Shown here: positions 3,595 through 27,427 of the stretch, piece after piece
Numbering within the stretch: position 1 is the stretch's first letter
Layout of the letters: every line of letters starts with the position of its first letter
NCBI GenBank assembly: GCA_001761425.1
Contig: CP012986.1
Coordinates: 1,080,001 to 1,112,000 of the forward strand
DNA: 32,000 nucleotides
Source: Candidatus Saccharimonadota bacterium
GTDB lineage: Archaea > Nanohalarchaeota > Nanosalinia > Nanosalinales > Nanosalinaceae
Reading direction: 5' to 3'
The notes under the pieces: generated by a model
Databases searched by the model: none
What the model was told of the DNA's origin: nothing
The model's input: only the letters and a program-made list of their open reading frames with translations
Translations under genes and position numbers: made by a program

Positions 3595-5190
3595 ATGGCA
3601 GAAGGTATTGAAGGACAGGCAGTAGAGGCTGAAGGAGGAGATCACCGTGAGATTTCTGTAGCGGAGTTCTTCGAGAAGAACAAGCACCTGCTGGGATTTG
3701 AGAACGCTCAAAAATCTATAATTACAGTTGTGAAGGAAGCTGTTGATAACTCGCTTGACGCATGTGAAGAAGAAGAGATTTTACCGGAGATCCAGGTTTT
3801 GATCGACGATATCGGCGACGAAAAGTGCCGTGTGGAGATCAGAGACAACGCCATGGGTCTTGACCGCGAAACAATCCCCAAGGTTTTCGGCAAGCTTCTG
3901 TACGGTTCAAAGTTCCACAAGCTACAGCAGAGCCGTGGACAGCAGGGAATCGGAATCTCAGCTTCTGCGATGTATGCACAGTTGACCACGGGAGAGCCTG
4001 TGACCGTCTGGTCCAAGCAGAAAGGCGAGCCATGCCACAAGTTCATTGTAAGAATTGATACGGAGAACAACGAACCTGAGATCCTCGAAGATGAAGTTGT
4101 AGATCCTGAGGGAGACGAGTTCCCTGCGAAGAAAGATTACTACTTCGATCACGGAACCACAATCGAGATGGATATTGAGGCCAAATACACGAAAGGCCAC
4201 CACTCCGTACGCAACTATTTGAAACACACAGCGATCATGAACCCATACGCAAGAATTGTACTGAGAGAACCAAGCGGAAACAAGATCGAGTACCCAAGAG
4301 TCTCAAAGGAGCTTCCAAAAAAACCGAAAGAGATCAAACCACACCCACACGGAGTGGAACTGGGAGTCCTAATGAGAATGATAGAAAACACAGACTCCCG
4401 CACAGTAAGCAGCTTTCTCCAGAACGAATTCACACGTGTAGGAAAAACCTCGGCAGAAAACATATGCGAGGAAGCAGACATAGATACAGGAAGAAGGCCT
4501 AACACCATGAGCAAGGATGAAATAGAAACCCTGCTCAACGCAGCACAGGAAGTAGACCTTCAAAGCCCTCCAACAGACTGTCTATCCCCTATAGGAGAGG
4601 ATCTTGTCGAGAAAGGCCTTCAGAAAGAACTCAACCCCGATCATATCTTCTCAGTGACACGTAAGCCCACAGTCTACAAAGGAAATCCCTTCCAGGTAGA
4701 AGTAGGCCTTGCATACGGAGGAGATATCCAAGAAGAAGGCTCTTTCGACGAACTCAGATATGCCAACAAGGTCCCACTGCTTTACAAGAAATCAGCGTGT
4801 GTAACGACTAAGGCTATCGAAAACGTTTCTTGGAACCGCTATAACATTTCTCAGACCGGGAACAGGCCTCAGGGACCGCTTTATGTCCTGGTTCATATCG
4901 CGTCTGTCTGGGTTCCTTTCACATCTGAGGGTAAGGAAGCTATCGCGAACTATGACCCTATCAGGAAGGAGATGAAGCTTGCTCTCCAGGAAGTCGGCAG
5001 GAAGCTCGGTAAGGAATTGAAGCGTGAGGAGCGGCGCAGAGTTCAGGAGAAAAAGAAGCGCAAGCTTACTTCTTATGCCAAGGAGATGGCTCCTGCGATC
5101 GCATCCCTTGCTGAAGGAGGAAGTGAGGAAGATATGGAGGATAAAATCCAGCAACTTGTTGAAGCGGATTACAACCCGGAACAGCTTTAG
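3595..5190 (+). CDS. top6B: DNA topoisomerase VI subunit B
   Basis: Bergerat-fold motifs EAVDNSLDA (N box) and SRGQQGIGIS (G box). 531 aa, immediately upstream of top6A. Confidence 0.95.
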   Translation: MAEGIEGQAVEAEGGDHREISVAEFFEKNKHLLGFENAQKSIITVVKEAVDNSLDACEEEEILPEIQVLIDDIGDEKCRVEIRDNAMGLDRETIPKVFGKLLYGSKFHKLQQSRGQQGIGISASAMYAQLTTGEPVTVWSKQKGEPCHKFIVRIDTENNEPEILEDEVVDPEGDEFPAKKDYYFDHGTTIEMDIEAKYTKGHHSVRNYLKHTAIMNPYARIVLREPSGNKIEYPRVSKELPKKPKEIKPHPHGVELGVLMRMIENTDSRTVSSFLQNEFTRVGKTSAENICEEADIDTGRRPNTMSKDEIETLLNAAQEVDLQSPPTDCLSPIGEDLVEKGLQKELNPDHIFSVTRKPTVYKGNPFQVEVGLAYGGDIQEEGSFDELRYANKVPLLYKKSACVTTKAIENVSWNRYNISQTGNRPQGPLYVLVHIASVWVPFTSEGKEAIANYDPIRKEMKLALQEVGRKLGKELKREERRRVQEKKKRKLTSYAKEMAPAIASLAEGGSEEDMEDKIQQLVEADYNPEQL

Positions 5191-5205
5191 AGGTGATTTG
5201 ATAAT

Positions 5206-6336
5206 ATGCCAAAGAAAGAATTCGAGAACGATGAGAGAACAGTAGAAAGACTGAAACATCTAGGACAGAAGATCAAGAAACAGCTTGAGGATCCTGAGGA
5301 AGGCGACCTTACTATAGAGACCAAGGTACGTTCCAAATCCAATGTCGAGTACGACAGGGAGAAGGGACGGCTTTCTCTTGGAGATTCCTACTCCACACGG
5401 AAATTCCTCAACATTTCACACGCAAGAAAATTTATGCAGACCTTGATGGTTGCATCAAAGACCAAAGAACTCGTAGAGCGCGGTAGAACAGCTTCGATCA
5501 GAGAAATCTACTACCAGCTGAAACACAGCGTTCCAGGCCTTGACGAAAACACTTTCGATGATCAGGATGAATCCAACAACGTAGTTGTCGACATCGAGAC
5601 AGCGACAGGAGCAATCAGAGAGGATCTACATCTCTTCGCAGAACCGAAAGGAAGGCTTTTCGGCCCGATCAAGATCAACGACTCTGGCGACATCATCGAC
5701 GGAATGAACATGGGAACATCCGGTATGGCGATCAACTCGATCGTAGATCACTTCGAATTCGTTGAATGCAACGCAGACAAGATTCTCGTGGTCGAGACAT
5801 CTGCTATGGTTAACAGACTGGTGGAAGAAGATTTCCACAAGGAACAGGATGCAGTCATCATCGGAACAGGAGGACAGCCGGCCAGAGGAGCAAGAAGACT
5901 CATCAACATGATGCACAACGAACTCGATCTTCCAGTCTACGTCTTCACCGACGGCGACCCATGGGGATACTACATCTACTCCGTGCTTAAATCCGGCTCC
6001 ATGAGCCTGGCATTCCAGTCAGACAGACTCTCCATCCCAGAAGCAAAGCTTATCGGGATGACAATGGAAGACATAGAAGAATACGGCCTCGAACACGTAA
6101 CAGAAGACCTCAAAGGAAAAAGCGATGACAACGGAGGCCCTACAAAGGACTACAAACGTATCCACGACGTCAAAGACTACGAATGGATGCAGACAGACGA
6201 ATGGCAGAAACAATTCCAGAAAATGCTGGACAAAGGAGTCAGAGTCGAACAACAGGCCCTAGCAAGCCAGAGCCTTGAGTTCGTCGCCAACACCTACCTC
6301 CCAGAAAAGATCGGGAACGACGAATACCTCGACTAG
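5206..6336 (+). CDS. top6A: DNA topoisomerase VI subunit A (Spo11 family)
   Basis: Catalytic-Tyr region REIYYQLKH; Toprim elements VVETSAMVNRL and FTDGDPWGYYIYSV. 376 aa. Confidence 0.95.
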   Translation: MPKKEFENDERTVERLKHLGQKIKKQLEDPEEGDLTIETKVRSKSNVEYDREKGRLSLGDSYSTRKFLNISHARKFMQTLMVASKTKELVERGRTASIREIYYQLKHSVPGLDENTFDDQDESNNVVVDIETATGAIREDLHLFAEPKGRLFGPIKINDSGDIIDGMNMGTSGMAINSIVDHFEFVECNADKILVVETSAMVNRLVEEDFHKEQDAVIIGTGGQPARGARRLINMMHNELDLPVYVFTDGDPWGYYIYSVLKSGSMSLAFQSDRLSIPEAKLIGMTMEDIEEYGLEHVTEDLKGKSDDNGGPTKDYKRIHDVKDYEWMQTDEWQKQFQKMLDKGVRVEQQALASQSLEFVANTYLPEKIGNDEYLD

Positions 6337-12485: not shown

Positions 12486-12968
12486 CTATATCTTTCTCAA
12501 CGCAGGAAGAATCATCTCAATGCTCGGAGCTAACTCGATATCATCCAGCTCCGAGGCCTTAAACCACTCAAGTCTTTCAAACTTTTCTTCCTTTATCTCT
12601 GGCTCTCCCTCTATCGAGGCCTTATAACAGTGCCAAAGGAAGATCCTGTCATCTTTCTGGAACTCTCCGCTGTAGAAAGGTTTCTCAAGTGAGGCCTTGA
12701 CTCCTATATCTTCTTTAACTTTTCTCACTGCGGCTTCTGTAGGGCTTTCGTTTTTTCCTACTTTTCCGCCAGGCATCTCCCACAAACCTTCAGGGTTGTT
12801 GGTAGAACAGCTTTCTTCTTGAGAAAGCTGTGACTCCTCCTGTTCTTTGTCTTCAGCGAAACTCTCCTGAGTTTCTGTAGACCCAGAAACCTCTGGTTTC
12901 GAGTCTCTGTACAGTAGAAGAACTTTGCCATCCTGTATTATCAGGTTTCCGGCGAGTTCCTGTGTCAT
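12486..12968 (-). CDS. Nudix hydrolase with a ~35-aa acidic low-complexity insertion
   Basis: Nudix box GGKVGKNESPTEAAVRKVKEDIGV. The insertion SKPEVSGSTETQESFAEDKEQEESQLSQEESCSTNNPE lies between the first strand and the box. Confidence 0.8.
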   Translation of the reverse strand: MTQELAGNLIIQDGKVLLLYRDSKPEVSGSTETQESFAEDKEQEESQLSQEESCSTNNPEGLWEMPGGKVGKNESPTEAAVRKVKEDIGVKASLEKPFYSGEFQKDDRIFLWHCYKASIEGEPEIKEEKFERLEWFKASELDDIELAPSIEMILPALRKI

Positions 12969-13789
12969 ACAAACGTGAATAACAGGATCATCATTATTAA
13001 TCCTGTAATATTACCTGTGATGAACTCTTTCCAGCCCGATCCATCTAGGTCTTCGGCCTCCTCAAAGGCCTCCTCCACAAACTCTGTCAACACTAGATAG
13101 ATCATCGCACCTGCTGCAAAACCATAACCTGCTGGAAGAAACATCCTGGCCTCACGCACAAAAATGAACGCAATGACCGCTCCTATAGGCTGGGGTACGC
13201 TGGAAAATATCGCTGCACCCATGGTCTTCCAGTTGCTTACACCTGAGGCCTTGAACGGTATAGAGATCGCGATGCCTTCAGGTATGTTGTGGATAGAGAT
13301 TGCGATCGTCATAGTGATGGCGATAGCAGGGACTGCAAAGCCGAGGATCGGGATACCTGACCCGAGGCCCATCTCCGCAAATGATACTCCGATAGCGACT
13401 CCTTCAGGAAAACTGTGAACCGTTAAAACACCGAGGATGAGTACCATCTTCTTGAAATCCCTCTCCTCGAAAGTGCCGGGATCAAGCTCCACTTCATCGA
13501 CAATCCTCTGTGCCACAACAACTAGAGCAACGCCAAAGGCAAGGCCTATACCGACAGCGAGGTAAGGCGAGTTAAACAGTGGATACTCCTGTGCTGCAGC
13601 AAGGCCTTCAGGTAAAAGCCCTAGAAAAGAGGCTGCCAGCATTATTCCGGAGGCGAGACCCCACATACCTACGAGAAGCCTCTTACTGAACTCCTTGACA
13701 AAGAAAAACGGTACTGCACCCAGTCCTGTCGCCAGGTCTGTTATGAGGCCTGCGATAAAGACTATGAAAAGTGCTTCAAGAGTCGCCAT
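12965..13789 (-). CDS. ZIP-family divalent metal transporter (ZupT-like)
   Basis: HSFPEGVAIGVSF and HNIPEGIAISIPF metal-binding helices; about 8 TM segments. Its stop overlaps the Nudix gene start by 4 nt. Confidence 0.9.
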   Translation of the reverse strand: MATLEALFIVFIAGLITDLATGLGAVPFFFVKEFSKRLLVGMWGLASGIMLAASFLGLLPEGLAAAQEYPLFNSPYLAVGIGLAFGVALVVVAQRIVDEVELDPGTFEERDFKKMVLILGVLTVHSFPEGVAIGVSFAEMGLGSGIPILGFAVPAIAITMTIAISIHNIPEGIAISIPFKASGVSNWKTMGAAIFSSVPQPIGAVIAFIFVREARMFLPAGYGFAAGAMIYLVLTEFVEEAFEEAEDLDGSGWKEFITGNITGLIMMILLFTFV

Positions 13790-13838
13790 GCCTAGTTTTT
13801 AGCGGGTACAGACTTATGTGTGTTACGCAGAGAAAAAG

Positions 13839-13856
13839 GTTTAGGCAGGCCTAAAC
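13839..13856. terminator. Palindromic hairpin GTTTAGGC-AG-GCCTAAAC flanked by A-run/T-run, downstream of the HIT gene on the minus strand
   Basis: On the minus strand the stem is followed by CTTTTTCTC. It sits between the HIT stop (13921) and the ZIP start (13789). Confidence 0.35.
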
Positions 13857-13920
13857 TTTTGTTGAAGATCGTAGAGGAAAGAAAATAGGGAAGAAATTAG
13901 CCTGAGAGGTTTTTCAGGCC

Positions 13921-14322
13921 TCAAAGTTTCTGTTTTATCTCTTCTACGGTTTTTTCAGCTTCTTCGAGGTCGCCTCTGTTATAGGTTACATCCAGTTCGT
14001 TTCCCTCGTAGATCGGTGTGACATGGAAGTGTAGATGGAATACTTCCTGCCCTGCCTTTTCACCGTTGTTCTGTGCGATGTTGATTCCATCTGGGTTGAA
14101 CGCTTTTTCCAGAGCGTTTGAGACGTTGACAAGGCCTTCGTGGAGGAAGTTCATTCCTCCGGCTTCATGGATTGTTTCGACGTGTTTCTTCGGTATTACC
14201 AGTGTGTGGCCTTTTGAGACCGGGTTTGCGTCGAGGATTGCGATTATGTTTTCGTCTTCATAGATCTTGTGGGATGGTATTTCGCCGTCGATTATCTTGC
14301 AGAATATGCAGTCGTCTGTCAT
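13921..14322 (-). CDS. HIT-family (histidine triad) nucleotide hydrolase/transferase
   Basis: CIFCKIIDGEIPS...ILDANPVSKGHTLVIPKKH...QEVFHLHFHVTP (HxHxHxx motif). Confidence 0.9.
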   Translation of the reverse strand: MTDDCIFCKIIDGEIPSHKIYEDENIIAILDANPVSKGHTLVIPKKHVETIHEAGGMNFLHEGLVNVSNALEKAFNPDGINIAQNNGEKAGQEVFHLHFHVTPIYEGNELDVTYNRGDLEEAEKTVEEIKQKL

Positions 14323-14436
14323 AGATTGTTTTTGTGGTTGAGGCCTTTTTTCTGTTTCTGTGGAGTTTAGTGAAGTTTTGTGTTAGACTTTGGTATTAAT
14401 TGAGTTATTTAAACCAGGGATAGCATTTTTCTGTGT

Positions 14437-15438
14437 ATGGAAAGGACCGATATTGCTTTAGGTCTGGGTGCTTTAGCCCTGGTTATTTCTGTCGGCGTTG
14501 CTGTCCAAGTTACGACTCAAAACAACGGATCTGTTGATTCATTGAACGAGTCTGAGGTCACTGATATTGCCGAAGGTTTGGATAGCGAGCAGTCGAGCAG
14601 GTATGGGGAGCCGCTTTACGCTGGCTCTTCTATGGGCTATGTGATTGATTTCCCTAACGGAGAGAGCTTTTACGTTTCAGGAGATACTGGTCCTATGTGG
14701 ACCCTTGAGAATTATGTGAAGGATTCTCTTGATCCTTCTGTATCGTTCTTCTCCACAGGGAATGTCTACACTGCAGATATGGAGACAGGAGCCGAGATGG
14801 CTTCCCAGGTTGATTCCGAAGTCTCCATTCCTATCCACTATGGAACTTTCCCATTCCTTGATCAGGATACTGATGAGTTCGAGAACAGACTCTCTGAGCT
14901 TAGAAGTCAGGGAGAGACCAGTTCTGAATCAAGGACCCTTGAGACAGGAGAATGGGAAACCATCAGAGGCGTAGAGACCATGTGGGTAGGCCACGGAACT
15001 ATGTTCTTTAAAGGCCCTGAGGGGACGGATATCATGGTTGATCCTTGGATCAAGACCAATCCGAAAGCTCCTGAGTCATGGAAGAACGATAGTTCCAACA
15101 TCCCTGAGACAGATATGATCTTGATTACCCACGGACATCTCGATCACTTCACACCATCTATGATCGAGACACTTCAGGAACAGCACAACTCGACAGTTGT
15201 AGCTGAGTGGGAACTGGCTGGACATATGGCGAATCAGGGATTCTCCAACACCGTCGCCGTCAACAAAGGAGCTGACCTAGACAAGTCAACTCTGAAAGGC
15301 GCAGGTGCTACTGGAGCAATCGAAAGAGTCTCAGACGACATCAATCTGCATACAGTCTGGGCAAAGCACTCTTCATCACCCGCAACATCACTTGGAGACG
15401 CATTCGGAATAGCAGTTGAAGGAGAAATCACAGAGTAA
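14437..15438 (+). CDS. Membrane-anchored or secreted metallo-beta-lactamase-fold hydrolase (UPF0173-like) with permuted motif order
   Basis: N-terminal hydrophobic anchor (aa 5-25). SFYVSGDTG (aa 78-85) and IPIHYGTFPF (aa 131-140) normally lie at the C-terminal end of UPF0173 proteins. They are followed here by MWVGHGTMFF...VDPW...NPKAP, ILITHGHLDH (aa 229-237) and WAKHSSS (aa 308-314), which normally lie at the N-terminal end. A TTATTTAAA box at 14405-14413 lies about 28 nt upstream of the ATG. Confidence 0.8.
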   Translation: MERTDIALGLGALALVISVGVAVQVTTQNNGSVDSLNESEVTDIAEGLDSEQSSRYGEPLYAGSSMGYVIDFPNGESFYVSGDTGPMWTLENYVKDSLDPSVSFFSTGNVYTADMETGAEMASQVDSEVSIPIHYGTFPFLDQDTDEFENRLSELRSQGETSSESRTLETGEWETIRGVETMWVGHGTMFFKGPEGTDIMVDPWIKTNPKAPESWKNDSSNIPETDMILITHGHLDHFTPSMIETLQEQHNSTVVAEWELAGHMANQGFSNTVAVNKGADLDKSTLKGAGATGAIERVSDDINLHTVWAKHSSSPATSLGDAFGIAVEGEITE

Positions 15439-15485
15439 AAATCTCCTTCAACTCCCTTCCATTTATTTTAAACAAGACAAAGAAC

Positions 15486-16538
15486 GTGAAACAATACATG
15501 AAGATCAGAACGATAATGATAGCAAGCTTCCTGTTCATCGCAGGGTTCACACCAGCACTGACATTTGCAACACAACAGGCAGTAGCAGACACAAACCAGG
15601 AAGCAAAAGACAGGATAGACAGCTCACTAAAAGTGATAGAGAACAGCAAAACAACATTTGACTCATCAGAAAAAATGCTAGAACAACTAAAGACAGTACA
15701 GAGGCAACTGGATAACGGAGAGATCTCAAAAGCAATAGATACTGCAGAAAAACTTTCAGAAAATTACAAAGACTTCCTTGAAGCCAGTAAAGCCCTTGAA
15801 GAACATGTAAATAACTCTGATACTGGGTCAGGCCTCCAGGCAGAACTCGAGACTATAAGAAATGCCAAGGAAGGTATGAGCGAACAGATAAGGTACGTCA
15901 CAAGTGGAGTAAGAACAGGGTCTACACTCTCAACTACTGCAATAAATAACTTTCAGTCAGACTTCCAGAAAGTAGCATCTGCCTCTGCCACAATAAACGC
16001 CGAGATAGTCGAGAGCCAGAGCCAGGAACTTGTAGGCCTGCACGAAAGCCTGGGAGATCTAAGCAATCAGATCGTTGCAATGGGAGGCCTTGTAGTGTTC
16101 ATATCTGTTATCATCGCTCTCGGCGCATCAATCAGGCTCTCAAGGCCTATCAAACAGCTTTCCGAAGAAGCTGAAAAGATCAAACACGAGAACCTCGACG
16201 AGGTAAACCTTTCTAGGATCAATACCAGAGCTGACGAACTAACCGAGTTCAAGGAAGTGCTGAGCGATATGGTACTGGCTCTGAAGGCAGAGTTCAACAG
16301 AGACAGAACGCAGATGAACGACTTGACTCTTGACGTGGTAAGTGAACTTGAGAACGAAGTTCCAAGAGGTACAGCAGAGTCCAGCGTGACTTCCGCATGC
16401 AACAGCATGGAAATCGATCCTATGGAGCTTTCAGAGGATGACATCCCCGAATTAGCGGATAAACTGGAGATATCGATGAGAGGCCTTCAGACTAACGAGG
16501 AAATCTTCGAGAACATACGGAACCTGAACTCCGAGTAA
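15486..16538 (+). CDS. Membrane protein: signal/TM, helical extracytoplasmic domain, TM, HAMP-like linker and a short acidic tail with no recognisable output domain
   Basis: N-terminal IMIASFLFIAGFTPALTFA. Second TM GGLVVFISVIIALGASI is followed directly by RLSRPIKQLSEEAEKIKHENLD...DELTEFKEVLSDMVLAL, a HAMP-like amphipathic pair. Confidence 0.6.
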   Translation: MKQYMKIRTIMIASFLFIAGFTPALTFATQQAVADTNQEAKDRIDSSLKVIENSKTTFDSSEKMLEQLKTVQRQLDNGEISKAIDTAEKLSENYKDFLEASKALEEHVNNSDTGSGLQAELETIRNAKEGMSEQIRYVTSGVRTGSTLSTTAINNFQSDFQKVASASATINAEIVESQSQELVGLHESLGDLSNQIVAMGGLVVFISVIIALGASIRLSRPIKQLSEEAEKIKHENLDEVNLSRINTRADELTEFKEVLSDMVLALKAEFNRDRTQMNDLTLDVVSELENEVPRGTAESSVTSACNSMEIDPMELSEDDIPELADKLEISMRGLQTNEEIFENIRNLNSE

Positions 16539-16553: not shown

Positions 16554-16583
16554 TATTAACGCCACCACTCATATCACGGAGTT

Positions 16584-16658
16584 GCGGCAGTAGTGTAGTC
16601 TGGCCAATCATCTCGGCCTTTCGAGCCGAAGACCCGGGTTCAAATCCCGGCCGCCGCA
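16584..16658 (+). tRNA. tRNA-Glu (anticodon TTC at 16620-16622)
   Basis: Hand-folded. GCGGCAG-TA-GTGTAGTCTGGCCAATCAT matches the archaeal tRNA-Glu D region. Anticodon arm TCGGC-CTTTCGA-GCCGA; T arm CCGGG-TTCAAAT-CCCGG; acceptor 3' strand CCGCCGC plus discriminator A. There is one A6-C67 mismatch and no encoded CCA. Confidence 0.88.
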
Positions 16659-16722
16659 TGTTTAGTAAATTTTTCCTGAGTTTTTTATCTTGAGAAAGAT
16701 ACTGCGGAATTAACTGAGGCTT

Positions 16723-17259
16723 TTATTCGGATACGTTTTCTTTTTTCTGGAAGACGCATTTTTCGTCTCCTGCGGCTTTACACTTTGTCTCTGTGAACTG
16801 TCTGTCGCTGGAGTATACTCTCTGGTAGGCTCCTGTAAGCATCCCTGTGAGGAAGTAACAGACTTTTTTCTCTTCGTAGTCTGCTTTCAGGTGTTCTTCG
16901 GCTGTAGGAGAGGATTTGACTGCGATCTGTTCTTCCTCGACGGTCATCTTTGAATAGCCCATGAACTGTAGAAGTGCTAGGAAGTTTGCGAACATATCGT
17001 CCTCTTCTTTTTCATCTATTACCTCGAGAAGTTCTTTGCCGTACTCCTGGCCTGTCTCACGTATTATGCCTCCGGCTGCTCCGGAGTAGAGTTCTGAGAG
17101 AGATTCCATGATGTCGGACATGAAATAATCAGCTCCCATTATGTTGAATCTCTTGCCTTCATAGTTTATTTTCCCGTTTTCATCTCCCTCGAATTTTTCG
17201 GAGACCCTTATCTCCCAGAAATAGTTTTCTTTCAGGTCATTCACTTTTTCAGGATTCAT
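16723..17259 (-). CDS. V4R-domain protein (small-molecule-binding regulatory domain)
   Basis: C-terminal V4R cysteine pattern CYFLTGMLTGAY...FTETKCKAAGDEKCVFQ. I prefer ATG 17259, which is preceded by GAGGTGG on the minus strand, over the track's GTG at 17280. It overlaps the upstream gene by 11 nt. Confidence 0.7.
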   Translation of the reverse strand: MNPEKVNDLKENYFWEIRVSEKFEGDENGKINYEGKRFNIMGADYFMSDIMESLSELYSGAAGGIIRETGQEYGKELLEVIDEKEEDDMFANFLALLQFMGYSKMTVEEEQIAVKSSPTAEEHLKADYEEKKVCYFLTGMLTGAYQRVYSSDRQFTETKCKAAGDEKCVFQKKENVSE

Positions 17260-17869
17260 CGGAAACCACCTCGAAAACACAGTACTCTTTTTCTATAGAT
17301 TCACATCTACATTCCACTTCTTCTCCTTCAACCTCTTTCTCCCAGAAGTAGGATGAAAGGCCTATAAGCACTCCAAGAAGGAATTTACATTCTTTTCTAC
17401 CAGTTGTACCGTAACTGTATGATTCAAACGTGTTGTAGGCCTTTATCCTGATTTTTTCTCCGTCTTCGTATTCTTCTATCTCTGTTCGGCCAAGCCAGCC
17501 GACGAAGGTTCCGTAACCTAGTATCTTCTTTAACTGTGATTCATTGTCTGTTGGCTTGAGAGCTTTTACCCCTCCTACATCGAATCCTGACTTCCAGAGA
17601 AGGCTCAGTATCTCTTTATTGGATGTCTCATTGAACTGGGCATCCATCTTTCCGCCTATATTTTTTCCTGCTCTTTCACCAAACTCCTGTATCCTGCTCT
17701 GGATCACAGGGCCTGCGACGTCTTCCATGTTATGAAAGATTTTGGCAAAGACGTTTGTATCCATGAAGACGAATCTGCGGTTAGCATAACTTCTGACGGC
17801 TTCCTCATCTACATCTAGGTCTATCAAATGAGGTGCCAACCTGTAGAATGCGTTGTACGAATCTCCCAC
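17249..17869 (-). CDS. V4R-domain protein (paralogue of the downstream gene)
   Basis: RRFVFMDTNVFAKIF...EFGERAGKNIG...CKFLLGVLIGLSSYF...VECRCESIEKEYCVFEV follows the V4R layout. Confidence 0.72.
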   Translation of the reverse strand: MGDSYNAFYRLAPHLIDLDVDEEAVRSYANRRFVFMDTNVFAKIFHNMEDVAGPVIQSRIQEFGERAGKNIGGKMDAQFNETSNKEILSLLWKSGFDVGGVKALKPTDNESQLKKILGYGTFVGWLGRTEIEEYEDGEKIRIKAYNTFESYSYGTTGRKECKFLLGVLIGLSSYFWEKEVEGEEVECRCESIEKEYCVFEVVSDES

Positions 17870-17986
17870 ACTTAGTTATTAAGATGCTCTGGCTTATAAA
17901 TTAGTGAGAAATTCAGGCCTCGAAAAAGGCCTTCCATCAGATGATTTTATATGTCGGGAAAACAGAATTGGATTATAGTGTATAAT

Positions 17987-19588
17987 ATGGATATATCTAA
18001 GGCCTTGATGATTTCGACTTTCCTGATCGTTTTCACCGCTGGTGCTTCAGCTATCGGACCGGCGGAGTACGACGGTGATCTACAGGTAAACCTTGAGAGT
18101 GATTCTTTCGCACCGGGAGATGAGGTGAATGGAGATATCTCCGTTGCCAACTCCGATGAAAGGCCTGTAGTGGATGGCTACGTTGTCGTAAACGTTGTGA
18201 GAGGTGAATCACCTTACTATCCATCTCAGAAGTCTGACAGGGACAATGTTTTCCACCAGGAGAAGATTGAAGATATAAATCTGAAGGCTGGCAACAGCAG
18301 AGATCTCGAGTTCAGCTACAGTCTTCCGGAGGATTTGAGGCCTGGAGATTACAGGGTTGAGGCCTATTTCAAGAATGATAGAACCCCTGTAGACGGTCTT
18401 CCTTCGATTTATTCGACACCAAGACATGACTCCTTTACTGTTTCCGGTTCATCTGGAGATTATCCAGGCCTTGATATTTCGAGGACCGAGACATACTTCA
18501 CCGGTGTGGATGAAGCAGTCGGTGACTGGGATCCGGAATCACTTAACTTCAATGATACTAACTGGCCTTCGCTTACAGGCCCTGTAGGTGTTTTAACAAC
18601 AAATTCCATGGATACTGTAGAGGGCGAGGTCGTTATCGACAATCCTTCAGATTCAGGTAAATCCGCGAATCTTGAGGTAGTTGTATGTGAGTGGGACGAT
18701 ACAGCCTGTTCGAACAAGATCGATTCTGTGAGCAAATCTGTACAGGTTCCGGCCTCAGGTACTTCAGTTCCTGTAGAGGTTGAAAATCCTTCGGAACCAG
18801 GTGCTTACGCTGTGAAGATGAACGTCAGTGTTGACGACATGACTCACTCTATTTACAGGAACAGGATTATCAGAGAAGGTAATACTTCCAGGATCAGAAA
18901 ACTTAGCGTCAACAGGCCTTACATAGGGTCAGGAGACCAGCTTTCCGTAGGCCTTGTTGCCGGTGCTTCGCCTGATCATTACAATGATCCTTCAGCGGAA
19001 GGAGTTGATGCACAGGTTACAGTTGAAGCGGACGGTGAGGAGGTCTTCAGCAAGACTAAGGAGATCAATAGATTATCGAATACGAATACTTTCGAACAGC
19101 TTTACTTTAACTCGACAGTAGACGATACTCTCACAACTTATACTGTTTCAGCCGAATTAAGTGCAAACGGAAAGAGTTACGATAGTTATTCATACGAAGT
19201 TGATTACAGCGACTTCAGAAACGAGGTTGAGAACGTAAGCCTGAGAAGCTATGAGTTTACAAATAGTTCTCTTGACGCAGAGATTTGCGGTGAGACGGAT
19301 TCAGGTGCGCCGGCTGCAGGAGAGGTTCAGGCCTTAGTGATGGAGAATGCGACGCTGATGGCTCAGGAAAATAATCTTATTGAGGGCTGTTCGAGTTTCA
19401 AGTTTGAAGATGTAGATTCAGGTAACTACGAGCTTGTAGCGAATCATGGGAGTCAGACAAGATTCAATATCACGCCCGGAGGCCTTGAAGCGGACGAGGA
19501 AGAAGGAGGAGTTCCTTATGTTCCTTTGGTGATGGTAATGGTTTTGCTGGTTATCGCAGCAGTCTTTTACAGAGGTGTTAAAGAATGA
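17987..19588 (+). CDS. Large acidic surface protein: signal peptide, CARDB/Ig-like beta-rich repeats, C-terminal TM anchor
   Basis: Start taken at MDISKALMISTFLIVFTAGASA. The C-terminus is VPYVPLVMVMVLLVIAAVFYRGVKE. Segments such as GDISVANSDERPVVDGYVVVNVV and GEVVIDNPSDSGKSANLEVVV resemble CARDB-type strands. There are many N-x-S/T sequons. Confidence 0.75.
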   Translation: MDISKALMISTFLIVFTAGASAIGPAEYDGDLQVNLESDSFAPGDEVNGDISVANSDERPVVDGYVVVNVVRGESPYYPSQKSDRDNVFHQEKIEDINLKAGNSRDLEFSYSLPEDLRPGDYRVEAYFKNDRTPVDGLPSIYSTPRHDSFTVSGSSGDYPGLDISRTETYFTGVDEAVGDWDPESLNFNDTNWPSLTGPVGVLTTNSMDTVEGEVVIDNPSDSGKSANLEVVVCEWDDTACSNKIDSVSKSVQVPASGTSVPVEVENPSEPGAYAVKMNVSVDDMTHSIYRNRIIREGNTSRIRKLSVNRPYIGSGDQLSVGLVAGASPDHYNDPSAEGVDAQVTVEADGEEVFSKTKEINRLSNTNTFEQLYFNSTVDDTLTTYTVSAELSANGKSYDSYSYEVDYSDFRNEVENVSLRSYEFTNSSLDAEICGETDSGAPAAGEVQALVMENATLMAQENNLIEGCSSFKFEDVDSGNYELVANHGSQTRFNITPGGLEADEEEGGVPYVPLVMVMVLLVIAAVFYRGVKE

Positions 19589-21570
19589 GAAAGAATCTAA
19601 CATTGGTTTTGATAGGTTTAGGTTTAATTGCATCGGTTTCAGGTGCCGAGCCTGTACTGAACAATGAAAGCCCGGAAAATAATTCTGTTATTGACAGGAC
19701 TTACTCGGAACTGCAAAATCAGGATATAACTCTAGGTATAAACGCGACGAACCCTGATGGAGATGTCAATGTTTCTTTCTTCAACGCGACCAGTGACGCT
19801 TTGATCGGTGAAAATACATCTGGAGGCCCTGTGTTCACCCAGTCATGGGATGTAAACGAGTTCAGGGAACATGAGTGGTATGTCAAGGCCTCGGGAGAAA
19901 CAGGAAATAACACTAATACAACCAGTTCAGGGACTTTCAGTTTCGAGGTGAACAACCCTGACTCTACAGGTCCTACGATAACATTTGATTCAACCCCGGA
20001 CGATCCTACCCTGAACAGAGATGTCACCATCGAGGGAAGCCTTGATGAGGATGCTAGAGTAGAATACCGTGTGGACGGAGGTAACTACAACAGTATCGCT
20101 GGAGGCTGGATGCAGAACTTTGACTTCGATGTTGAAGGCCTGAGTAATGGAGAGCATACTGTCACTGTTAGAGCCGAGGACAGATCAGGGAACACAAATA
20201 CTAATTCTATTACCATCAGTGTAGCGGACGGTTCCGAGGTAACGTTTGATGTGAACGTAGATCAGTCTTATCCTCGTTCCGGGATCCCTATCGATCCTGA
20301 CAGTGATCTTTATGAGAGAGAGACTAGTGTAGACTTTGATTTCAGCCTGGAAAGTGGAAGCCAAGACTATGATATCTCTAACAGGTATGAAGACGGTATC
20401 TGTGACTTCAGAGGAGATGATGGCTGGCATCTCGGAAACGATTACTTCTGCGGTTCGGAAGTCCCTGCTAATATTGATATAGGTTCTGGTAGCAAGGATT
20501 ACGAGCTGGTAGCTGAATGGAATTTAAGAGGAGAAAATCACAGGAGAGTTCTGGACTCAAGTTTCTCAATAAGCGATACAGCAACTTGGTATTCCTCAAG
20601 CATGAGTCACGGTGGTAGAGTCGAAGGAGAGGTAAACCTGAATACCGAGTTTGATCGTGACTATGTATCGTACAATGGTCAGAAAGTAACTTGTACCGGT
20701 AGCACCTACGAGGTAAACAACATCCAGGAGGTTACCGCTAGATGCAGCAACGGAGCGACTTCGACCAGTACGCCGCCAGTAGTTGCTTTCGTGAACAGAA
20801 ACGGTGAGAAAGTTACCACGAACAACAACAATATGTTCGGGGACAATGACTGTAAGATTGGTGACGGAGTCACCAGACAGCAGCTTTTCGGAGTCGCAGG
20901 CCTTGATACTGACAACCAAGGTTACAATCCTCAGAACTGTAATATAGGATGGACTCTAGGAGGAGACTCAAGCTTTGAAGCACATACATTCTCCCAGCCG
21001 GGAGTATATAATGTATTTGTCGATTATCCAAATGCAATCTCAAACTCCCCAGACTATATCTGTCCGGCAAGAACAGACAACAATAATCTCTGTGACTCAG
21101 GCTCAATCTCGGGAGATGAATCTGGATGGGACAATGTCGAACATGAATCGGTGAAAGTTGTAAGCACCGATGCTGAAATCACCGAATCCAGCTTCCCCGG
21201 GTCAGTGACTACCGATGTGAACGGAGATACATACATCAGGAGAAGTGATTACAGTGGAGACATTCAGGGAACGATAGAATTTGAGAACACAGGAACAGGT
21301 ATTGTAGAAGTGTCGAACATGAACTTTGACTGTCCTCAAGGAGTTGAATGTGAAGCCGTATCCGATCTATCAAACAATCTTGAAGTAGAGGGAGGAGAAA
21401 CTGTAGAAATTGTCTGGACCGCATCACCTGACGGAAGAACTACAGGAGAGATAAACGTGGAAATACAGTACGATGACATATACGGTCTAAGCTGTGCCAC
21501 GACAGAGCCATACTCTGAAACCTATTATCTAGATGAAGCTGATCCGGAGACTCAGGAGGGGGCGAATTAA
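19585..21570 (+). CDS. Large secreted protein with Ig-like domains and no membrane anchor
   Basis: Signal peptide MRKNLTLVLIGLGLIASVSGA. Ig-like module GPTITFDS...VTIEGSLDEDARVEYRVDGGNYNSI...GEHTVTVRAEDRSGNTN. Dense sequons at the N-terminus. Its start overlaps the upstream stop (ATGA). Confidence 0.8.
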   Translation: MRKNLTLVLIGLGLIASVSGAEPVLNNESPENNSVIDRTYSELQNQDITLGINATNPDGDVNVSFFNATSDALIGENTSGGPVFTQSWDVNEFREHEWYVKASGETGNNTNTTSSGTFSFEVNNPDSTGPTITFDSTPDDPTLNRDVTIEGSLDEDARVEYRVDGGNYNSIAGGWMQNFDFDVEGLSNGEHTVTVRAEDRSGNTNTNSITISVADGSEVTFDVNVDQSYPRSGIPIDPDSDLYERETSVDFDFSLESGSQDYDISNRYEDGICDFRGDDGWHLGNDYFCGSEVPANIDIGSGSKDYELVAEWNLRGENHRRVLDSSFSISDTATWYSSSMSHGGRVEGEVNLNTEFDRDYVSYNGQKVTCTGSTYEVNNIQEVTARCSNGATSTSTPPVVAFVNRNGEKVTTNNNNMFGDNDCKIGDGVTRQQLFGVAGLDTDNQGYNPQNCNIGWTLGGDSSFEAHTFSQPGVYNVFVDYPNAISNSPDYICPARTDNNNLCDSGSISGDESGWDNVEHESVKVVSTDAEITESSFPGSVTTDVNGDTYIRRSDYSGDIQGTIEFENTGTGIVEVSNMNFDCPQGVECEAVSDLSNNLEVEGGETVEIVWTASPDGRTTGEINVEIQYDDIYGLSCATTEPYSETYYLDEADPETQEGAN

Positions 21571-21571
21571 G

Positions 21572-22840
21572 ATGAAGAAGATAGCCATAGCAGTTCTGAC
21601 AGCGGTCCTCCTCATCTCCACAGCATCAGCACAGACTTGGCACAACACAGAACAGCAAACTAATCTTGACGCGGAAGACGATGAATCAGGAGTTGAGGAT
21701 ACATACTACTGCATCGACCAGAGCGATGAATGCGGCCCAAAGGAAGACGGAGAAGAATACAATGAAGGAGAAACAATAGATATCACAGATGAAGGTATAA
21801 ACTACCTCAGATACTTCTCCGAGGACAAGGTAGGGAATGAGGAAGAAACACAGTCAAGAATTTTCAGACTTGACTTCACCAATCCGATCAGTGAAAGCAA
21901 CTACAGCGGCGGATGGTATAACGAACCTGTCACAGTCGAGATCTCATGCAACGATCCAGAGGACCCCGAGCCCTCAGGTTGTGACACAAAGCAGATCTGT
22001 AAGGGGAGCTCATGCACACCGAGAGAAGGAGACACAGCCACATACAACTCGGAGGGCAGACACACCGCCAGATACAACTCCATCGACGTAGCAGGCAATA
22101 ATGAACCGGTAAACGAACAGGAAGTACTACTGGATTTCACATCTCCACAGGTAGCGGTACAGAAGGAGTCAGTGAGTTCTGAGACAATGAACGCTACAGT
22201 GGCATGTACAGATGAGATGTCAGGATGTGACGGATCAAGCCAGAGACTTTACACCTCCGATGAACCAGCTCTGAACTGTCCGACGGACGAAAGCAGATAC
22301 AACGAAGGATCCACCTATCAGGTAAACCAGCATCTCTGGGTATGTGCAGCAGCGAAGGATGAGGCAGGAAACTGGGCCTTCAGCAATCAGCCTGTAGAGT
22401 TCAGCGTAGGAACCCTGACAACAAACCTTGATTACCCTGGAAAACCAGGATCGGTAGTCACAAACATCGACTCCGCGATCCCGATAACACTGGAGATCGG
22501 AAACGAAGAAGAGGATAAGGATAGAACGATAAACATCTCGCTGGAAGGCCCTACACAGTTCGCTGATCAGTCAACCTGGAAAGAGATAGAACTTAACGGA
22601 GTAGAGAACCGGGAGTTCAACTTCATTGCGAGGCCTGAACAGGTCGGAAACACATCAGTCACTGTCAACATGAGGGAGAAGACAGAAGGGTTCACGATAA
22701 CGAAAGAGGTCAAAATGGAAGTGAGAGAAAGCGGTTCAAGAACAAGCAGTGCAGGAAGGGAAACACCTGGTATAGGCCTTTTACAGATAGCAGTACTGAC
22801 AGGTATAGCAGCAACGTACCTGGCCTTCAGAAACTGGTGA
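21572..22840 (+). CDS. Secreted surface protein with three Cys-containing Ig-like repeats and a PGF-CTERM-like tail
   Basis: Start at MKKIAIAVLTAVLLISTASAQ, 1 nt after the upstream TAA stop (21568-21570). The repeats end in FSEDKVGNEE, NSIDVAGNNE and AAKDEAGNWA. The C-terminus is SSAGRETPGIGLLQIAVLTGIAATYLAFRNW. Confidence 0.8.
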   Translation: MKKIAIAVLTAVLLISTASAQTWHNTEQQTNLDAEDDESGVEDTYYCIDQSDECGPKEDGEEYNEGETIDITDEGINYLRYFSEDKVGNEEETQSRIFRLDFTNPISESNYSGGWYNEPVTVEISCNDPEDPEPSGCDTKQICKGSSCTPREGDTATYNSEGRHTARYNSIDVAGNNEPVNEQEVLLDFTSPQVAVQKESVSSETMNATVACTDEMSGCDGSSQRLYTSDEPALNCPTDESRYNEGSTYQVNQHLWVCAAAKDEAGNWAFSNQPVEFSVGTLTTNLDYPGKPGSVVTNIDSAIPITLEIGNEEEDKDRTINISLEGPTQFADQSTWKEIELNGVENREFNFIARPEQVGNTSVTVNMREKTEGFTITKEVKMEVRESGSRTSSAGRETPGIGLLQIAVLTGIAATYLAFRNW

Positions 22841-26533: not shown

Positions 26534-27427
26534 CTAATCCAGTACATTATCCAGCATATCACCGATCTCATGGTGAACATCTGCGACGTGAGCACCGGCC
26601 TGTTTCAAGGCCTTTTCTTTGTGGCTAGGCTTCCCACGATCTCCTCTTATGATCGCTCCTGCGTGGCCGTACTTTTTCTCCGGCATATCCTCCGTGAACT
26701 TTCCGGTTATATACACTACCAGGGGCTTCGTGAACTCTCCTTTTTCCACGAATTCAGCGGCTTTCTCCTCGTAAGTTCCTCCTAGCTCTCCAAACAAGAC
26801 GACAGCCTCAGTCTGGTCATCCTCCTCGAACTTTTCCAGTGCGTCTTCAAACGCAGTTCCTGCAATAACATCTCCGCCAAGGCCTGCGGCGGTAGAAACT
26901 CCATATCCTGCCTGTCGGACAACCCATGAAGTTTCCGTTGTCATTCCACCGCTCTTGGAGATTACCCCTACCTTCCCTTCTCTGTAGACTCTCTCAGGTT
27001 TGTTTCCTCCGATAGGCCCGAGCTTTGCTTTTCCAGGAGAGATGATACCTACGCTTGTAGGACCTACCATCGTCGCATCGTATTCCTGAACTTTCTCGTA
27101 TATCTCCCAGGCATCCCTCGTCGGAATCCTTTCAGTAATAACGTTCAATGTCTCTACACCGTTTTCCAAGGCCTCGAATACAGCGTCTCTAGCGGCGAAA
27201 GGCGGGACATAGATCAGTGAAGTATTTATGCCTGGATGCTTCTGTAAGGCCTCCCGGACGGTGTCATAGACCGGTACGCCTTCAACTTTCTGCCCTCCCT
27301 TGCCGGGAGTTACGCCCGCAACGACGTCGGTACCGTACTCGATCATCTCCGGGACCTTTTCACTTGCCTCCCTGCCCGTGATCCCTTGAACCAGAACCTT
27401 GGTATCTTCATCTATGAGTATACTCAT
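26534..27427 (-). CDS. Succinyl-CoA synthetase alpha-type subunit (CoA-binding plus phosphohistidine domain); candidate citryl-CoA synthetase / ACL small subunit
   Basis: LVQGITGREAS...YGTDVVAGVTPGKGGQKVEGVPVYDTV and the phosphohistidine loop KKYGHAGAIIRGDRGKP. Confidence 0.9.
   Translation of the reverse strand: MSILIDEDTKVLVQGITGREASEKVPEMIEYGTDVVAGVTPGKGGQKVEGVPVYDTVREALQKHPGINTSLIYVPPFAARDAVFEALENGVETLNVITERIPTRDAWEIYEKVQEYDATMVGPTSVGIISPGKAKLGPIGGNKPERVYREGKVGVISKSGGMTTETSWVVRQAGYGVSTAAGLGGDVIAGTAFEDALEKFEEDDQTEAVVLFGELGGTYEEKAAEFVEKGEFTKPLVVYITGKFTEDMPEKKYGHAGAIIRGDRGKPSHKEKALKQAGAHVADVHHEIGDMLDNVLD

Follow-up and report, generated by a model that had tools for sequence, protein, structure and literature searches.

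Sequence evidence for a circularly permuted, membrane-anchored UPF0173-like metallo-beta-lactamase-fold protein encoded beside a membrane transducer in Nanohaloarchaea archaeon SG9

The gene under study lies in a window of 32,000 nucleotides, the whole stretch of DNA analysed here, from Nanohaloarchaea archaeon SG9, and all features described below are located on its forward (+) strand. An open reading frame at 14437..15438, starting with ATG and specifying 333 amino acids plus a stop codon, was assigned from the frame itself and from profile and homologue matches as the coding sequence of a circularly permuted, membrane-anchored putative hydrolase of the metallo-beta-lactamase (MBL) fold, related to the UPF0173 family. 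A TATA-like box recognised by eye, ttatttaaa at 14406..14414, precedes the start codon by 23-31 nt; judged by the general archaeal TATA consensus it is a possible promoter for a leaderless mRNA. The protein opens with a predicted signal anchor or transmembrane (TM) helix (aa 5-23, 14449..14505), located by a hydrophobicity scan and modelled by AF2 as a helix over aa 4-17. An acidic, partly helical spacer (aa 24-55, 14506..14601; low pLDDT, helix 38-50) connects this anchor to the catalytic domain and is found in all homologues, but is variable.

The remainder of the chain consists of the two halves of a UPF0173-type domain in swapped order. The half that is C-terminal in canonical proteins is encoded first (aa 56-178, 14602..14970), as delimited by HMM positions ~118-232, PDB chain residues 133-230 and the junction alignment, and contains motif 4 with Asp83 (GDTG), motif 5 with His134 (PIHY), together with the helix and strand that close canonical proteins. 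The canonical N-terminal half is encoded second (aa 179-314, 14971..15378; HMM 3-116, PDB chain residues 1-111, PF13483 and PF12706) and contains strand 1 (VETMWVGHG), motif 1 with Asp202 (VDPW), motif 2 with His232-x-His234-x-Asp236-His237 and motif 3 with His311 (HSS). A clade-specific insertion, DLDKSTLKGAGATGAIERVSDD, at aa about 279-300 (15271..15336), separates the NKG turn from the strand before HSS. The protein ends in an acidic, Nanohaloarchaea-specific tail (aa 315-333, 15379..15435) that is disordered in the AF2 model and without counterpart in distant relatives. The motif positions given in the preliminary description of this DNA were reproduced throughout (MGYVIDFPNGE 66-76, GDTG 82-85, PIHYGTFP 132-139, THGHLDH 231-237, AKHSSS 309-314 and GDAFGIAVEGE 320-330).

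The next gene downstream, at 15498..16538, encodes a membrane protein of 346 aa that is a conserved neighbour, with family matches at the same position in two further loci, L001 (32% identity) and L003 (60%). Its mechanical open reading frame begins at GTG 15486, but the homologues start at MKIRT, corresponding to ATG 15498. A second TATA-like box, tttattttaaa at 15463..15473, was again picked out by eye and would lie 25-35 nt 5' of this ATG. The two genes thus appear to have separate TATA-like boxes, which counts against assuming that they are co-transcribed.

Assignment of the 14437..15438 product to the MBL fold superfamily (Pfam Lactamase_B clan) is supported by matches above the gathering score to PF13483 (45.5 bits, cut-off 24) and PF12706 (45.0 bits, cut-off 27). 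With NF001911, the PRK00685 equivalog model, it reaches 122.5 bits in two stretches against a cut-off of 144, and it should therefore be regarded as a relative and not as an equivalog. Its 333 residues with TM anchor and spacer also depart from the PRK00685 type, a single-domain protein of ~225-245 aa with no export signal. The database label UlaG is unsupported, as NF008688 gave 19 bits where 306 are required, and beta-lactamases proper, RNase Z, glyoxalase II and beta-CASP proteins were rejected at E values of only 0.03-0.15.

As evidenced by phmmer searches against the PDB, every UPF0173 structure is matched in two stretches that occur in swapped order, and 7e3v, 3x2z and 6hrg behave alike in this respect. 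In 7e3v, query residues 54-152 correspond to chain residues 133-230, while query residues 183-279 correspond to chain residues 22-111 (E 6.9e-19); UPF0173 chains in the PDB matched the window protein with E values of 1e-15 to 1e-19. Two matching stretches were likewise obtained with NCBIfam PRK00685 (E 1.8e-35). A canonical HMM built from 84 canonical sequences recognised two domains, in reversed order, in each of the 30 permuted proteins tested, and in the window protein it aligned aa 23-155 with HMM positions 88-218 and aa 180-285 with positions 4-103. Matched separately to the canonical profile, each half gave an E value of 1e-26 to 1e-28 and was present in exactly one copy.

The complementary comparison, BLASTP against tandem-doubled canonical proteins, returned one collinear HSP in which query residues 60-281 align with residues 122-326 of the doubled protein P0020x2 (E 5e-26), and this alignment crosses the C/N junction at 231/232 without a gap. 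The motif order in the window protein is thus 4-5-1-2-3, versus 1-2-3-4-5 in canonical proteins, and the former C-terminus is fused directly to the former N-terminus without a linker (...LETGEWETI-RG-VETMWVGH...). The preliminary description had placed a Ser/Glu-rich linker at aa 155-178; this part of the proposal was not upheld, for the segment aligns with an ordinary canonical C-terminal helix and last strand, with a gap-free junction. The break that gives the new termini falls in the loop immediately after the motif-3 histidine; the counterpart of this loop in Igni18, PVR5, borders the catalytic pocket and makes the trimer interface (PMC7846560).

Taken as sequences, these matches make it almost certain that the ORF 14437-15438 protein is a circularly permuted UPF0173-type MBL hydrolase, and the preliminary description, which had proposed a circularly permuted MBL, is borne out by the swapped profile matches together with the collinear fit to a doubled canonical sequence. 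It had suggested a profile alignment and a survey of homologues as checks; the former yielded two swapped-order matches with PRK00685, with UPF0173 chains in the PDB and with the 84-sequence HMM, and the latter uncovered a conserved permuted clade beside canonical relatives. The observations that it had named as contrary did not appear: a lone collinear match to an undoubled canonical profile was not found, and the N-terminal 150 residues are not an unrelated domain, as aa 64-309 form one domain in the AF2 model and its halves superpose on UPF0173.

The opposing explanation would deny a true permutation. On this view the gene might stem from faulty assembly or gene calling, be a tandem duplicate in decay, or combine half an MBL protein with an N-terminal domain of unrelated origin. 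We consider this extremely improbable. Duplications do occur in the superfamily, as illustrated by the tandem double MBL protein P0126 (453 aa, four matched stretches), but here each half is present only once at the E values given above, and AF2 shows a single compact domain. Moreover, the same architecture of 310-345 aa recurs in over 30 independent clusters, which stem from many assemblies, a degree of conservation that argues against an artefact. An unrelated N-terminal domain is excluded by the swapped matches to PDB UPF0173 chains and to the canonical HMM. Taken together, the collinear match, the HMM result and the conservation of the family have effectively refuted this explanation already.

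Permuted homologues were found in Nanohaloarchaea, Aenigmarchaeota and Patescibacteria, as judged from their names and, for loci L085-L087, from bacterial gene content. They comprise 16 close clusters at 50-100% identity and about 15 representative distant clusters at 25-36%, and they have in common the motif order, the break point and the N-terminal membrane anchor. A profile search based on their alignment gained only three further permuted proteins. The insertion before the HSS strand is seen in all 20 permuted sequences of the alignment and amounts to roughly 15 residues, for which AF2 predicts two short helices, 283-288 and 293-297. Measured as the span between HMM positions 94 and 116, it leads to 34-39 residues in 18/22 permuted proteins and to 23-25 in the other four, the canonical median being 23.

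In crude NJ trees computed on numpy distances with 100 bootstraps, the permuted set was strictly monophyletic in only 3-7 of 100 replicates, because the canonical-order proteins P0018 and P0075 fall within it. Exported relatives of canonical order group with the permuted set in 74/100 bootstraps and are also nearest by distance; the permuted form nests in a subfamily of such proteins. A search of the accessible literature turned up no account of a naturally occurring circular permutant of the MBL fold.

With respect to the origin of the permutation, the preliminary description had taken the C-terminal GDAFGIAVEGE for a second copy of MGYVIDFPNGE, the strand with which the domain now begins, as would be expected after trimming of a tandem duplication at both ends. 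The position is indeed the expected one (HMM 126-135) and the register is correct, but the alignment gains only 1.7 bits and is not significant: 122/500 shuffled sequences match equally well, and hhalign gives P = 0.34. The segment is disordered in the AF2 model, and all distant permuted relatives are tail-free, stopping 2-15 residues past HSS. Judged from the sequence, the tail at aa 315-333 may be a relic of the opening strand, but this is unproven. The existence of tandem-fused MBL proteins such as P0126 speaks for duplication and trimming, yet no partly trimmed intermediate was present among the best 150 relatives. This origin is conceivable, at somewhat less than even odds, besides fission followed by re-fusion or some other route.

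All putative metal ligands were said to be retained, and this was confirmed for Asp202, His232, His234, Asp236, His237, His311, Asp83 and His134. Asp83, Asp202, His232, His234 and Asp236 are invariant across the family; for His237, His134 and His311 the conservation is 90% or more. Exceptions are His311, replaced by Gln in 3/16 close homologues (P0003, P0006 and P0009), and other ligand changes in a few distant members, such as P0027 with HGHFDQ. Five invariant residues and three conserved to at least 90% among sequences that are otherwise only 25-36% identical are the signature of a maintained metal site.

The AF2 core, aa 64-309, is one confident domain (mostly pLDDT >80, pTM 0.73). Note that the input alignment was shallow, with 16 sequences, and that confidence is low at aa 85-97 and from aa 310, the motif-3 region, onwards. 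Foldseek assigned the model a probability of 1.0 against many MBL structures, among them 4ojv (yeast PDE1). The superpositions on 3x2z and 7e3v cover 96-112 columns at 2.3 A, equivalent to one half only, as is expected from a sequential aligner.

From its residues the protein is likely to be a catalytically active hydrolase. A conceivable but improbable alternative is an inert pseudo-enzyme that serves solely as ligand-binding co-receptor or scaffold for the transducer. The Gln in place of the motif-3 histidine in the three close homologues fits such a role, the cut in the PVR5 loop near the pocket could impair catalysis, and the UPF0173 entry 7e3w, deposited with bound cAMP, illustrates that a protein of this family can hold this nucleotide as a ligand; the conservation of the eight ligand and structural residues at such low overall identity argues against it. 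With regard to substrates, the literature searched yielded nothing usable for 7E3V/7E3W or TM1162, and UPF0173 appears there only in proteomics lists. Igni18 is promiscuous, with phosphodiesterase, phospholipase C, lactonase and lipase activity (PMC7846560).

An N-terminal membrane anchor had been postulated from the first residues, and this held: the best 19-residue hydrophobic window is aa 5-23, with a mean Kyte-Doolittle value of 2.25, and a hydrophobicity scan located an N-terminal TM segment in 32/32 permuted homologues examined. In many of them the flank is basic on the N-terminal and acidic on the C-terminal side (P0024, P0031 and P0016). The accompanying remark that such an anchor is unusual for the family does not apply to the closest canonical-order relatives, where export is common: P0017, P0033 and P0034 carry Tat-type signals, P0018 a TM anchor and P0019 a signal peptide, and P0177 and P0178 are further exported examples with Tat-type or signal peptides. 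The anchor probably predates the permutation. The distribution of hydrophobic and charged residues makes an extracytoplasmic location of the catalytic domain probable.

We further analysed the genes adjacent to the hydrolase. In 11/11 informative loci, both of permuted proteins and of their nearest canonical relatives, the next gene downstream encodes a two-TM membrane transducer. A HAMP domain is clear in six of these, undetected or unclear in two, and sub-threshold in the three nanohaloarchaeal ones. A control set of 80 loci, collected in a genome-contig scan with a generic HxHxDH pattern and consisting entirely of canonical UPF0173 proteins, about 17 of them exported-like, had no such transducer directly downstream (0/80). 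The adjacency across permuted and nearest canonical loci is a new finding.

The outputs of the transducers differ. In L085-L087 the HAMP protein is followed by a histidine kinase (HK) and two RRs, and other permuted genes neighbour an HK (L088) or a HAMP-HK (L089). Beside the canonical exported relatives we found a hybrid HK (L090), a HAMP-cyclase (L091) and a HAMP-PAS-HK (L093). Among the partners, the N-terminal TM-ectodomain-TM-HAMP modules are homologous to one another (E values as low as 8e-29).

The nanohaloarchaeal partner at 15498-16538 has TM1 at aa 3-21 and TM2 at aa 192-210, with an all-helical ectodomain of ~170 aa between them; behind TM2 come a HAMP-like segment and, at the C-terminus, a small helical domain. 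Its family is restricted to nanohaloarchaea. Pfam HAMP scored 14.6 bits, below the cut-off of 25, over aa 217-252 counted from GTG (aa 213-248 from ATG 15498), and was sub-threshold in 7/20 family members (best E 6.7e-4); hhalign of this partner against bona fide HAMP partners gave E values of 4.6e-5 (for the CPR partners) and 3.6e-4. The AF2 model consists of the helices 3-72, 76-106, 108-140 and 146-229, with a helix-loop-helix after TM2. Its top Foldseek matches, NarQ sensor-TM-HAMP fragments and 4HB chemoreceptor domains, are not significant, and the QseG-QseE complex 9m08 was also among the matches. The ectodomain could not be aligned with the family to which the ectodomains of the other partners belong, and the protein has no recognisable output domain.

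We propose that this is a permuted, exported hydrolase of the UPF0173 type that works with the neighbouring membrane transducer, and give this overall reading a probability of roughly 65%. The hydrophobic segment would insert N-in/C-out and hold the catalytic domain outside the cell on a short stalk, where the permuted domain would fold as a normal alpha-beta/beta-alpha sandwich. Both halves together could build a binuclear metal site, and this site might hydrolyse an ester or phosphodiester linkage in an extracellular substrate, be it a small molecule or the head group of a lipid. With the termini shifted into the pocket-side loop, the membrane stalk would come to lie beside the active site. 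The enzyme could then process a ligand for the transducer, or serve as a co-sensor, with the transducer ectodomain responding to its state or its product. A role as extracytoplasmic hydrolase alongside the downstream sensor is likely, although for the functional coupling itself we see the chances as even.

CPR and DPANN organisms are host-dependent. The protein might accordingly be a stand-alone, secreted or anchored scavenging hydrolase, be it a nuclease, phosphodiesterase or lipase, that obtains nutrients from the host for a metabolically reduced symbiont, with the transducer only regulating its expression or being unrelated. This would be in line with the separate TATA-like boxes of the two window genes, with a nanohaloarchaeal partner that has neither a kinase nor another known output, and with characterised relatives that are promiscuous esterases and phosphodiesterases (PMC7846560). 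Nevertheless, the adjacency is kept across bacteria and archaea while the outputs vary from HAMP only to HK, PAS-HK, hybrid HK and cyclase, and it is missing from the 80 control loci, the exported-like ones included. A constant, homologous ectodomain module combined with a changing output speaks for coupling at the input and against a hydrolase gene that is simply under the control of the transducer, and we regard scavenging as unlikely. Returning to the hydrolase working with its transducer, we tentatively suggest, as a minority view among our expectations, that exported UPF0173-like MBL proteins, permuted as well as canonical, are a hitherto unrecognised class of extracytoplasmic co-sensors or ligand-processing enzymes. 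They would serve one particular family of two-TM HAMP transducers, in which the output can be a histidine kinase, a cyclase or HAMP alone. The permuted form, with its pocket-loop termini beside the stalk, might have been adopted and exchanged by episymbiotic CPR bacteria and DPANN archaea, possibly for sensing or processing a molecule from the host.

The MBL fold is a much-studied enzyme scaffold with roles in antibiotic resistance, RNA processing and quorum quenching. In the present case it would tolerate two simultaneous changes, the joining of the ancestral termini and the opening of the chain in a loop directly beside the metal site, and such tolerance is of use to protein engineering and to models for the evolution of this two-fold pseudo-symmetric sandwich. 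The permuted order also explains why these proteins are automatically mislabelled as 'hypothetical', 'UlaG' or generic 'MBL fold metallo-hydrolase'. An exported MBL protein with a cognate transducer, distributed from ordinary bacteria to CPR and DPANN organisms, provides a functional lead for a family without known physiological role, and may represent a module by which ultra-small symbionts, which are poor in signalling systems, sense their environment or host.

The closest systems for comparison are the solved members of UPF0173 (PRK00685; Pfam Lactamase_B_3), namely TM1162 (3X2Z), Igni18 (6HRG) and the 7E3V/7E3W protein. They share with the window protein the sequence family, seven metal ligands, the motif-1 Asp and the superposition of each half at about 2.3 A, and probably also the chemistry, in which a metal-activated water attacks an ester or phosphodiester (PMC7846560). 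The window protein differs in its swapped halves, in having its termini in the PVR5 loop, in the N-terminal anchor and spacer, in the ~15-residue insertion before the HSS strand, in its length of 333 aa versus about 228, and in a conserved sensor neighbour that is missing at ordinary UPF0173 loci. Note that Igni18 and TM1162 are homotrimers with the PVR5 loop in the interface (PMC7846560). The exported canonical-order relatives are alike in being exported and in their downstream TM-ectodomain-TM-HAMP transducer of the same type, but they retain the normal N-to-C order, do not have the insertion and, for the most part, belong to ordinary (non-CPR) bacteria.

Among better-known signalling systems, WalJ/YycJ (VicX) is an MBL-fold protein whose gene is conserved in the WalRK operon of Firmicutes, a two-component system whose kinase is modulated by two extracytoplasmic accessory proteins with N-terminal anchors, YycH and YycI. 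WalJ, however, is cytoplasmic, of canonical order and from another MBL subfamily, so that the likeness to the hydrolase-transducer pair is an analogy of genomic logic alone, with homology limited to the fold. LuxP-LuxQ, TorT-TorS and QseG-QseE likewise combine an extracytoplasmic protein with a membrane sensor encoded beside it and act on the input side, as we propose here, but their partners are binding proteins or lipoproteins and not metallo-hydrolases. AiiA-type AHL lactonases and class II cNMP phosphodiesterases such as yeast PDE1, finally, resemble the window protein in the MBL fold, the binuclear site and the small signalling molecules on which they act, yet they belong to other subfamilies, have canonical order and are soluble.

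Judged from its sequence, the 333-residue product of the ORF at 14437..15438 (+), which was 100% identical to 'hypothetical protein AQV86_05980' of Nanohaloarchaea archaeon SG9 in a database search, is a circularly permuted UPF0173-like metallo-beta-lactamase (MBL), and four independent tests concur. In a phmmer comparison with PDB sequences, query residues 54-152 matched residues 133-230 of the 7e3v chain and residues 183-279 matched 22-111, and the same two swapped stretches were obtained for TM1162 (3x2z) and Igni18 (6hrg). The preliminary description had proposed that a profile alignment would yield two matches in swapped order, and this was found with the NCBIfam model PRK00685 (two stretches, E 1.8e-35, with a score under the equivalog cut-off) as well as with an HMM built from 84 canonical-order relatives; Pfam Lactamase_B_3 and Lactamase_B_2 both scored above gathering. 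The 84-sequence HMM gave two domains in swapped order in 30/30 permuted proteins tested, HMM positions 118-218(232) falling on residues of about 55-155 and positions 3-103 on residues of about 180-285. Finally, in a BLASTP search against tandem-doubled canonical proteins, one collinear HSP (query 60-281 to 122-326 of the doubled P0020, E 5e-26) runs across the artificial C/N junction, and the alignment there is free of gaps, with RTLETGEWETIRGVETMWVGHG opposite KALKPGESLQLA followed across the junction by MLDIRFHGH. Residues 155-178, initially read as a Ser/Glu-rich linker, are therefore no new linker: they correspond to the helix and strand that normally close the domain, with the old termini fused directly to one another. 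The core reading of a circularly permuted MBL hydrolase with an N-terminal anchor is thereby supported, with three of its details corrected.

All motif residues were found in the protein at the positions first assigned to them. In an alignment with distant permuted relatives, Asp83, Asp202, His232, His234 and Asp236 are invariant and His237, His134 and His311 are conserved at at least 90%, which bears out the earlier claim that the metal ligands are retained. Three close nanohaloarchaeal homologues, P0003, P0006 and P0009, have His311 replaced by Gln (MKQSSS versus AKHSSS), with all remaining metal ligands intact.

An AlphaFold2 model calculated from a 16-sequence family alignment reached a pTM of 0.73 with a confident core at aa 64-309; confidence is low in three regions, namely aa 1-63 with the anchor and spacer, a loop at aa 85-97, and aa 310-333, the tail. 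A Foldseek search against the PDB matched many MBL structures at a probability of 1.0. Note that the true family members 3x2z and 7e3v superpose over just 96-112 columns at 2.3 A, corresponding to one half of the domain, because a sequential aligner must yield exactly this for a permutant; other MBLs with full-length alignments to the model show an rmsd of 7-18 A. The new C-terminus lies after the motif-3 histidine (HSS) and the new N-terminus before the strand 'YAGxxxGY'. In Igni18 this break-point region corresponds to the PVR5 loop, residues 117-126, which lines the edge of the catalytic pocket and makes up the trimer interface (PMC7846560), so that the membrane stalk would join the domain next to the active site.

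A C-terminal duplicate of the first strand of the permuted part had been taken as the trace of a trimmed tandem duplication. The nanohaloarchaeal tail LGDAFGIAVE does fall opposite canonical AGEAAGFVIE where it should (HMM 126-135), but the gain is just 1.7 bits, which was equalled or bettered in 122 of 500 shuffles of the tail. By hhalign, P was 0.34 versus the canonical profile and 0.049 versus the N-terminal strand of the family itself. In the model this tail is disordered, and the distant permuted relatives all lack it, ending 2-15 residues past HSS. Its identity as a relic strand is thus unproven. An origin by duplication and deletion is plausible. A tandem double MBL does exist: P0126, a 453-residue protein in which a signal peptide precedes two full MBL units (four matched stretches), is the kind of intermediate that this route requires, although its subfamily is a more distant one.

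A word-indexed search returned 16 clusters at 50-100% identity, each of 333-337 aa, and an exhaustive search of 1.84 billion representatives returned 1,449 relatives. Of the 150 best, 15 representatives (P0013, P0023-P0032, P0035, P0037, P0042 and P0062) align collinearly with the window protein over both halves and the others have canonical order, so that, as regards the survey of homologues suggested earlier, permuted forms are kept in many clusters with canonical relatives alongside. Identity over the matched stretches is 29-37%, and 50% for P0013, which represents the window protein's own close family; pairwise values to the window protein for the 12 of 15 placed in the alignment of permuted members are 25-32%. 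Complete permuted representatives comprise 310-345 aa, and the hydrophobic N-terminus first noted in the window protein is common to all permuted proteins examined, as are a spacer and an insertion of ~15 residues ahead of the HSS strand. By source name P0026 is Candidatus Aenigmarchaeota and P0029 and the P0035 cluster are Patescibacteria group, and the genes at three loci with permuted MBLs (L085-L087) are bacterial in content, among them those for NusA, RNase Y, Mur ligases, a PBP and Pol III delta. In NJ trees built on sequences re-permuted in silico the permuted proteins group together, and their sister group is formed by exported canonical-order proteins (joint clade in 74/100 bootstraps); among these nearest canonical relatives membrane or export placement is not unusual, which corrects the initial view. 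Strict monophyly was not recovered (3-7/100 bootstraps), as canonical P0018, which is TM-anchored, and P0075 are placed within the permuted set. That the permuted proteins have break point, insertion and anchor in common favours a single origin; in that case, the occurrence of the permuted form among CPR bacteria as well as DPANN archaea would imply inter-domain transfer.

The chief result beyond the preliminary description is the genomic context. At 15498-16538 (+), 60 nt downstream of the MBL gene, a membrane protein of 346 aa is encoded, with homologues in the same position at two further loci, L001 (32% identity) and L003 (60%); several others are on contigs equal in length to those that bear MBL genes. 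This nanohaloarchaeal partner consists of TM1, a helical ectodomain of ~170 aa, TM2 and a HAMP-like segment, matched by Pfam HAMP below threshold in 7/20 members, and it matches bona fide HAMP partners at E 4.6e-5 (hhalign). Its AF2 model shows a four-helix ectodomain, a TM helix and a helix-loop-helix, and the top Foldseek matches, none of them significant, are NarQ sensor-TM-HAMP fragments and 4HB chemoreceptor domains. Immediately downstream of other permuted genes we found a HAMP protein followed by a PAS-HisKA-HATPase kinase and two receivers (L085-L087, CPR), a histidine kinase (L088, Aenigmarchaeota) and a HAMP-HisKA-HATPase protein (L089); exported canonical genes are followed by a hybrid histidine kinase (L090), a HAMP-adenylate/guanylate cyclase (L091) and a HAMP-PAS-kinase (L093), the regions concerned being L090:5001-8291, L091:690-2967 and L093:1986-4695. 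Across these CPR, archaeal and ordinary bacterial loci the first 260 residues of the partners (TM1, ectodomain, TM2, HAMP) are mutually homologous (L089 versus L087, E 8e-29 over aa 19-245; L089 versus L093, E 3e-21), and the nanohaloarchaeal partner matches the others in the TM2-HAMP region alone. In 80 ordinary UPF0173 control loci (81 MBL ORFs, about 17 exported-like) neither swapped order nor such a transducer directly downstream occurred (0/80 each), and any match within 4 kb was found in only two. As the output domain differs between loci while the input module stays conserved, the arrangement points to a coupling of MBL and transducer at the sensing side. The CPR block (L085:7076-13203, L086:6986-14163, L087:6887-12928) is conserved in the order 5'-3' exonuclease, permuted MBL, HAMP protein, (FIST), PAS-HisKA-HATPase kinase, two single-domain receivers and Fpg glycosylase. 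In its HAMP protein a kinase is absent and the C-terminus is a coiled coil bearing a conserved 'VGRELKM' motif; sensor and kinase thus appear split.

Directly downstream of the partner gene in the window is a tRNA-Glu (anticodon UUC, 16583-16659, +), and just beyond it, convergent to the partner gene, are two adjoining V4R-domain (small-molecule-binding) proteins at 16723-17869 (-), a pair absent from the corresponding position in L001 and L003. Three consecutive large ORFs of 545, 661 and 435 aa with overlapping ends, operon-like in appearance, follow at 17951-22840 (+), with no match in Pfam at E <= 1e-5. Divergent from the MBL gene, 12486-14322 (-) encodes a NUDIX protein, a ZIP metal transporter and a HIT hydrolase; the block is absent in L001 and retained in order upstream of the MBL gene in L003, with two additional unannotated ORFs between HIT and MBL. 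The proximity of a zinc-family transporter to a metallo-hydrolase could be either meaningful or fortuitous. The window further contains topoisomerase VI subunits B and A at 3595-6336 (+) and, at 26534-29847 (-), ATP-grasp/citrate-binding and CoA-ligase genes (ATP-citrate-lyase or succinyl-CoA-ligase-like) that are also close to the MBL gene in L003.

From the observed permutation, conservation, anchor segment and adjacency we propose that the protein would be type-II-anchored and face outward, its swapped halves forming a normal MBL sandwich with a putative binuclear metallo-hydrolase site. It may hydrolyse an ester or phosphodiester bond of an extracellular molecule, a substrate class suggested by the characterised relatives Igni18, a promiscuous phosphodiesterase, phospholipase C, lactonase and lipase (PMC7846560), and 7e3w, a cAMP-bound PDB deposition. 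With the adjoining HAMP-type transducer it could then act as a ligand-processing enzyme or co-sensor.

With respect to UPF0173/PRK00685 the window protein is a divergent relative under the cut-off, and hence not an equivalog. Identity with UlaG was rejected (19 bits versus a cut-off of 306), and on the same values the JGI name 'L-ascorbate metabolism protein UlaG' for the permuted proteins P0007, P0023, P0025, P0175 and P0176 is unsupported, as is 'nitrogen fixation/metabolism regulation signal transduction histidine kinase' for the nanohaloarchaeal partner, which has no kinase domain. Full-text literature searches yielded no account of a naturally circularly permuted MBL fold, nor any paper that connects MBL-fold proteins with HAMP transducers, and neither topic comes up in a survey of CPR MBL-like genes. 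Analogous logic is found in WalJ/YycJ with YycH/YycI in WalRK operons and in LuxP-LuxQ-type partner proteins. The window protein thus belongs to an MBL subfamily that is circularly permuted, membrane-anchored and conserved, and for which an unexpected, testable connection with membrane signalling has emerged in CPR and DPANN organisms.
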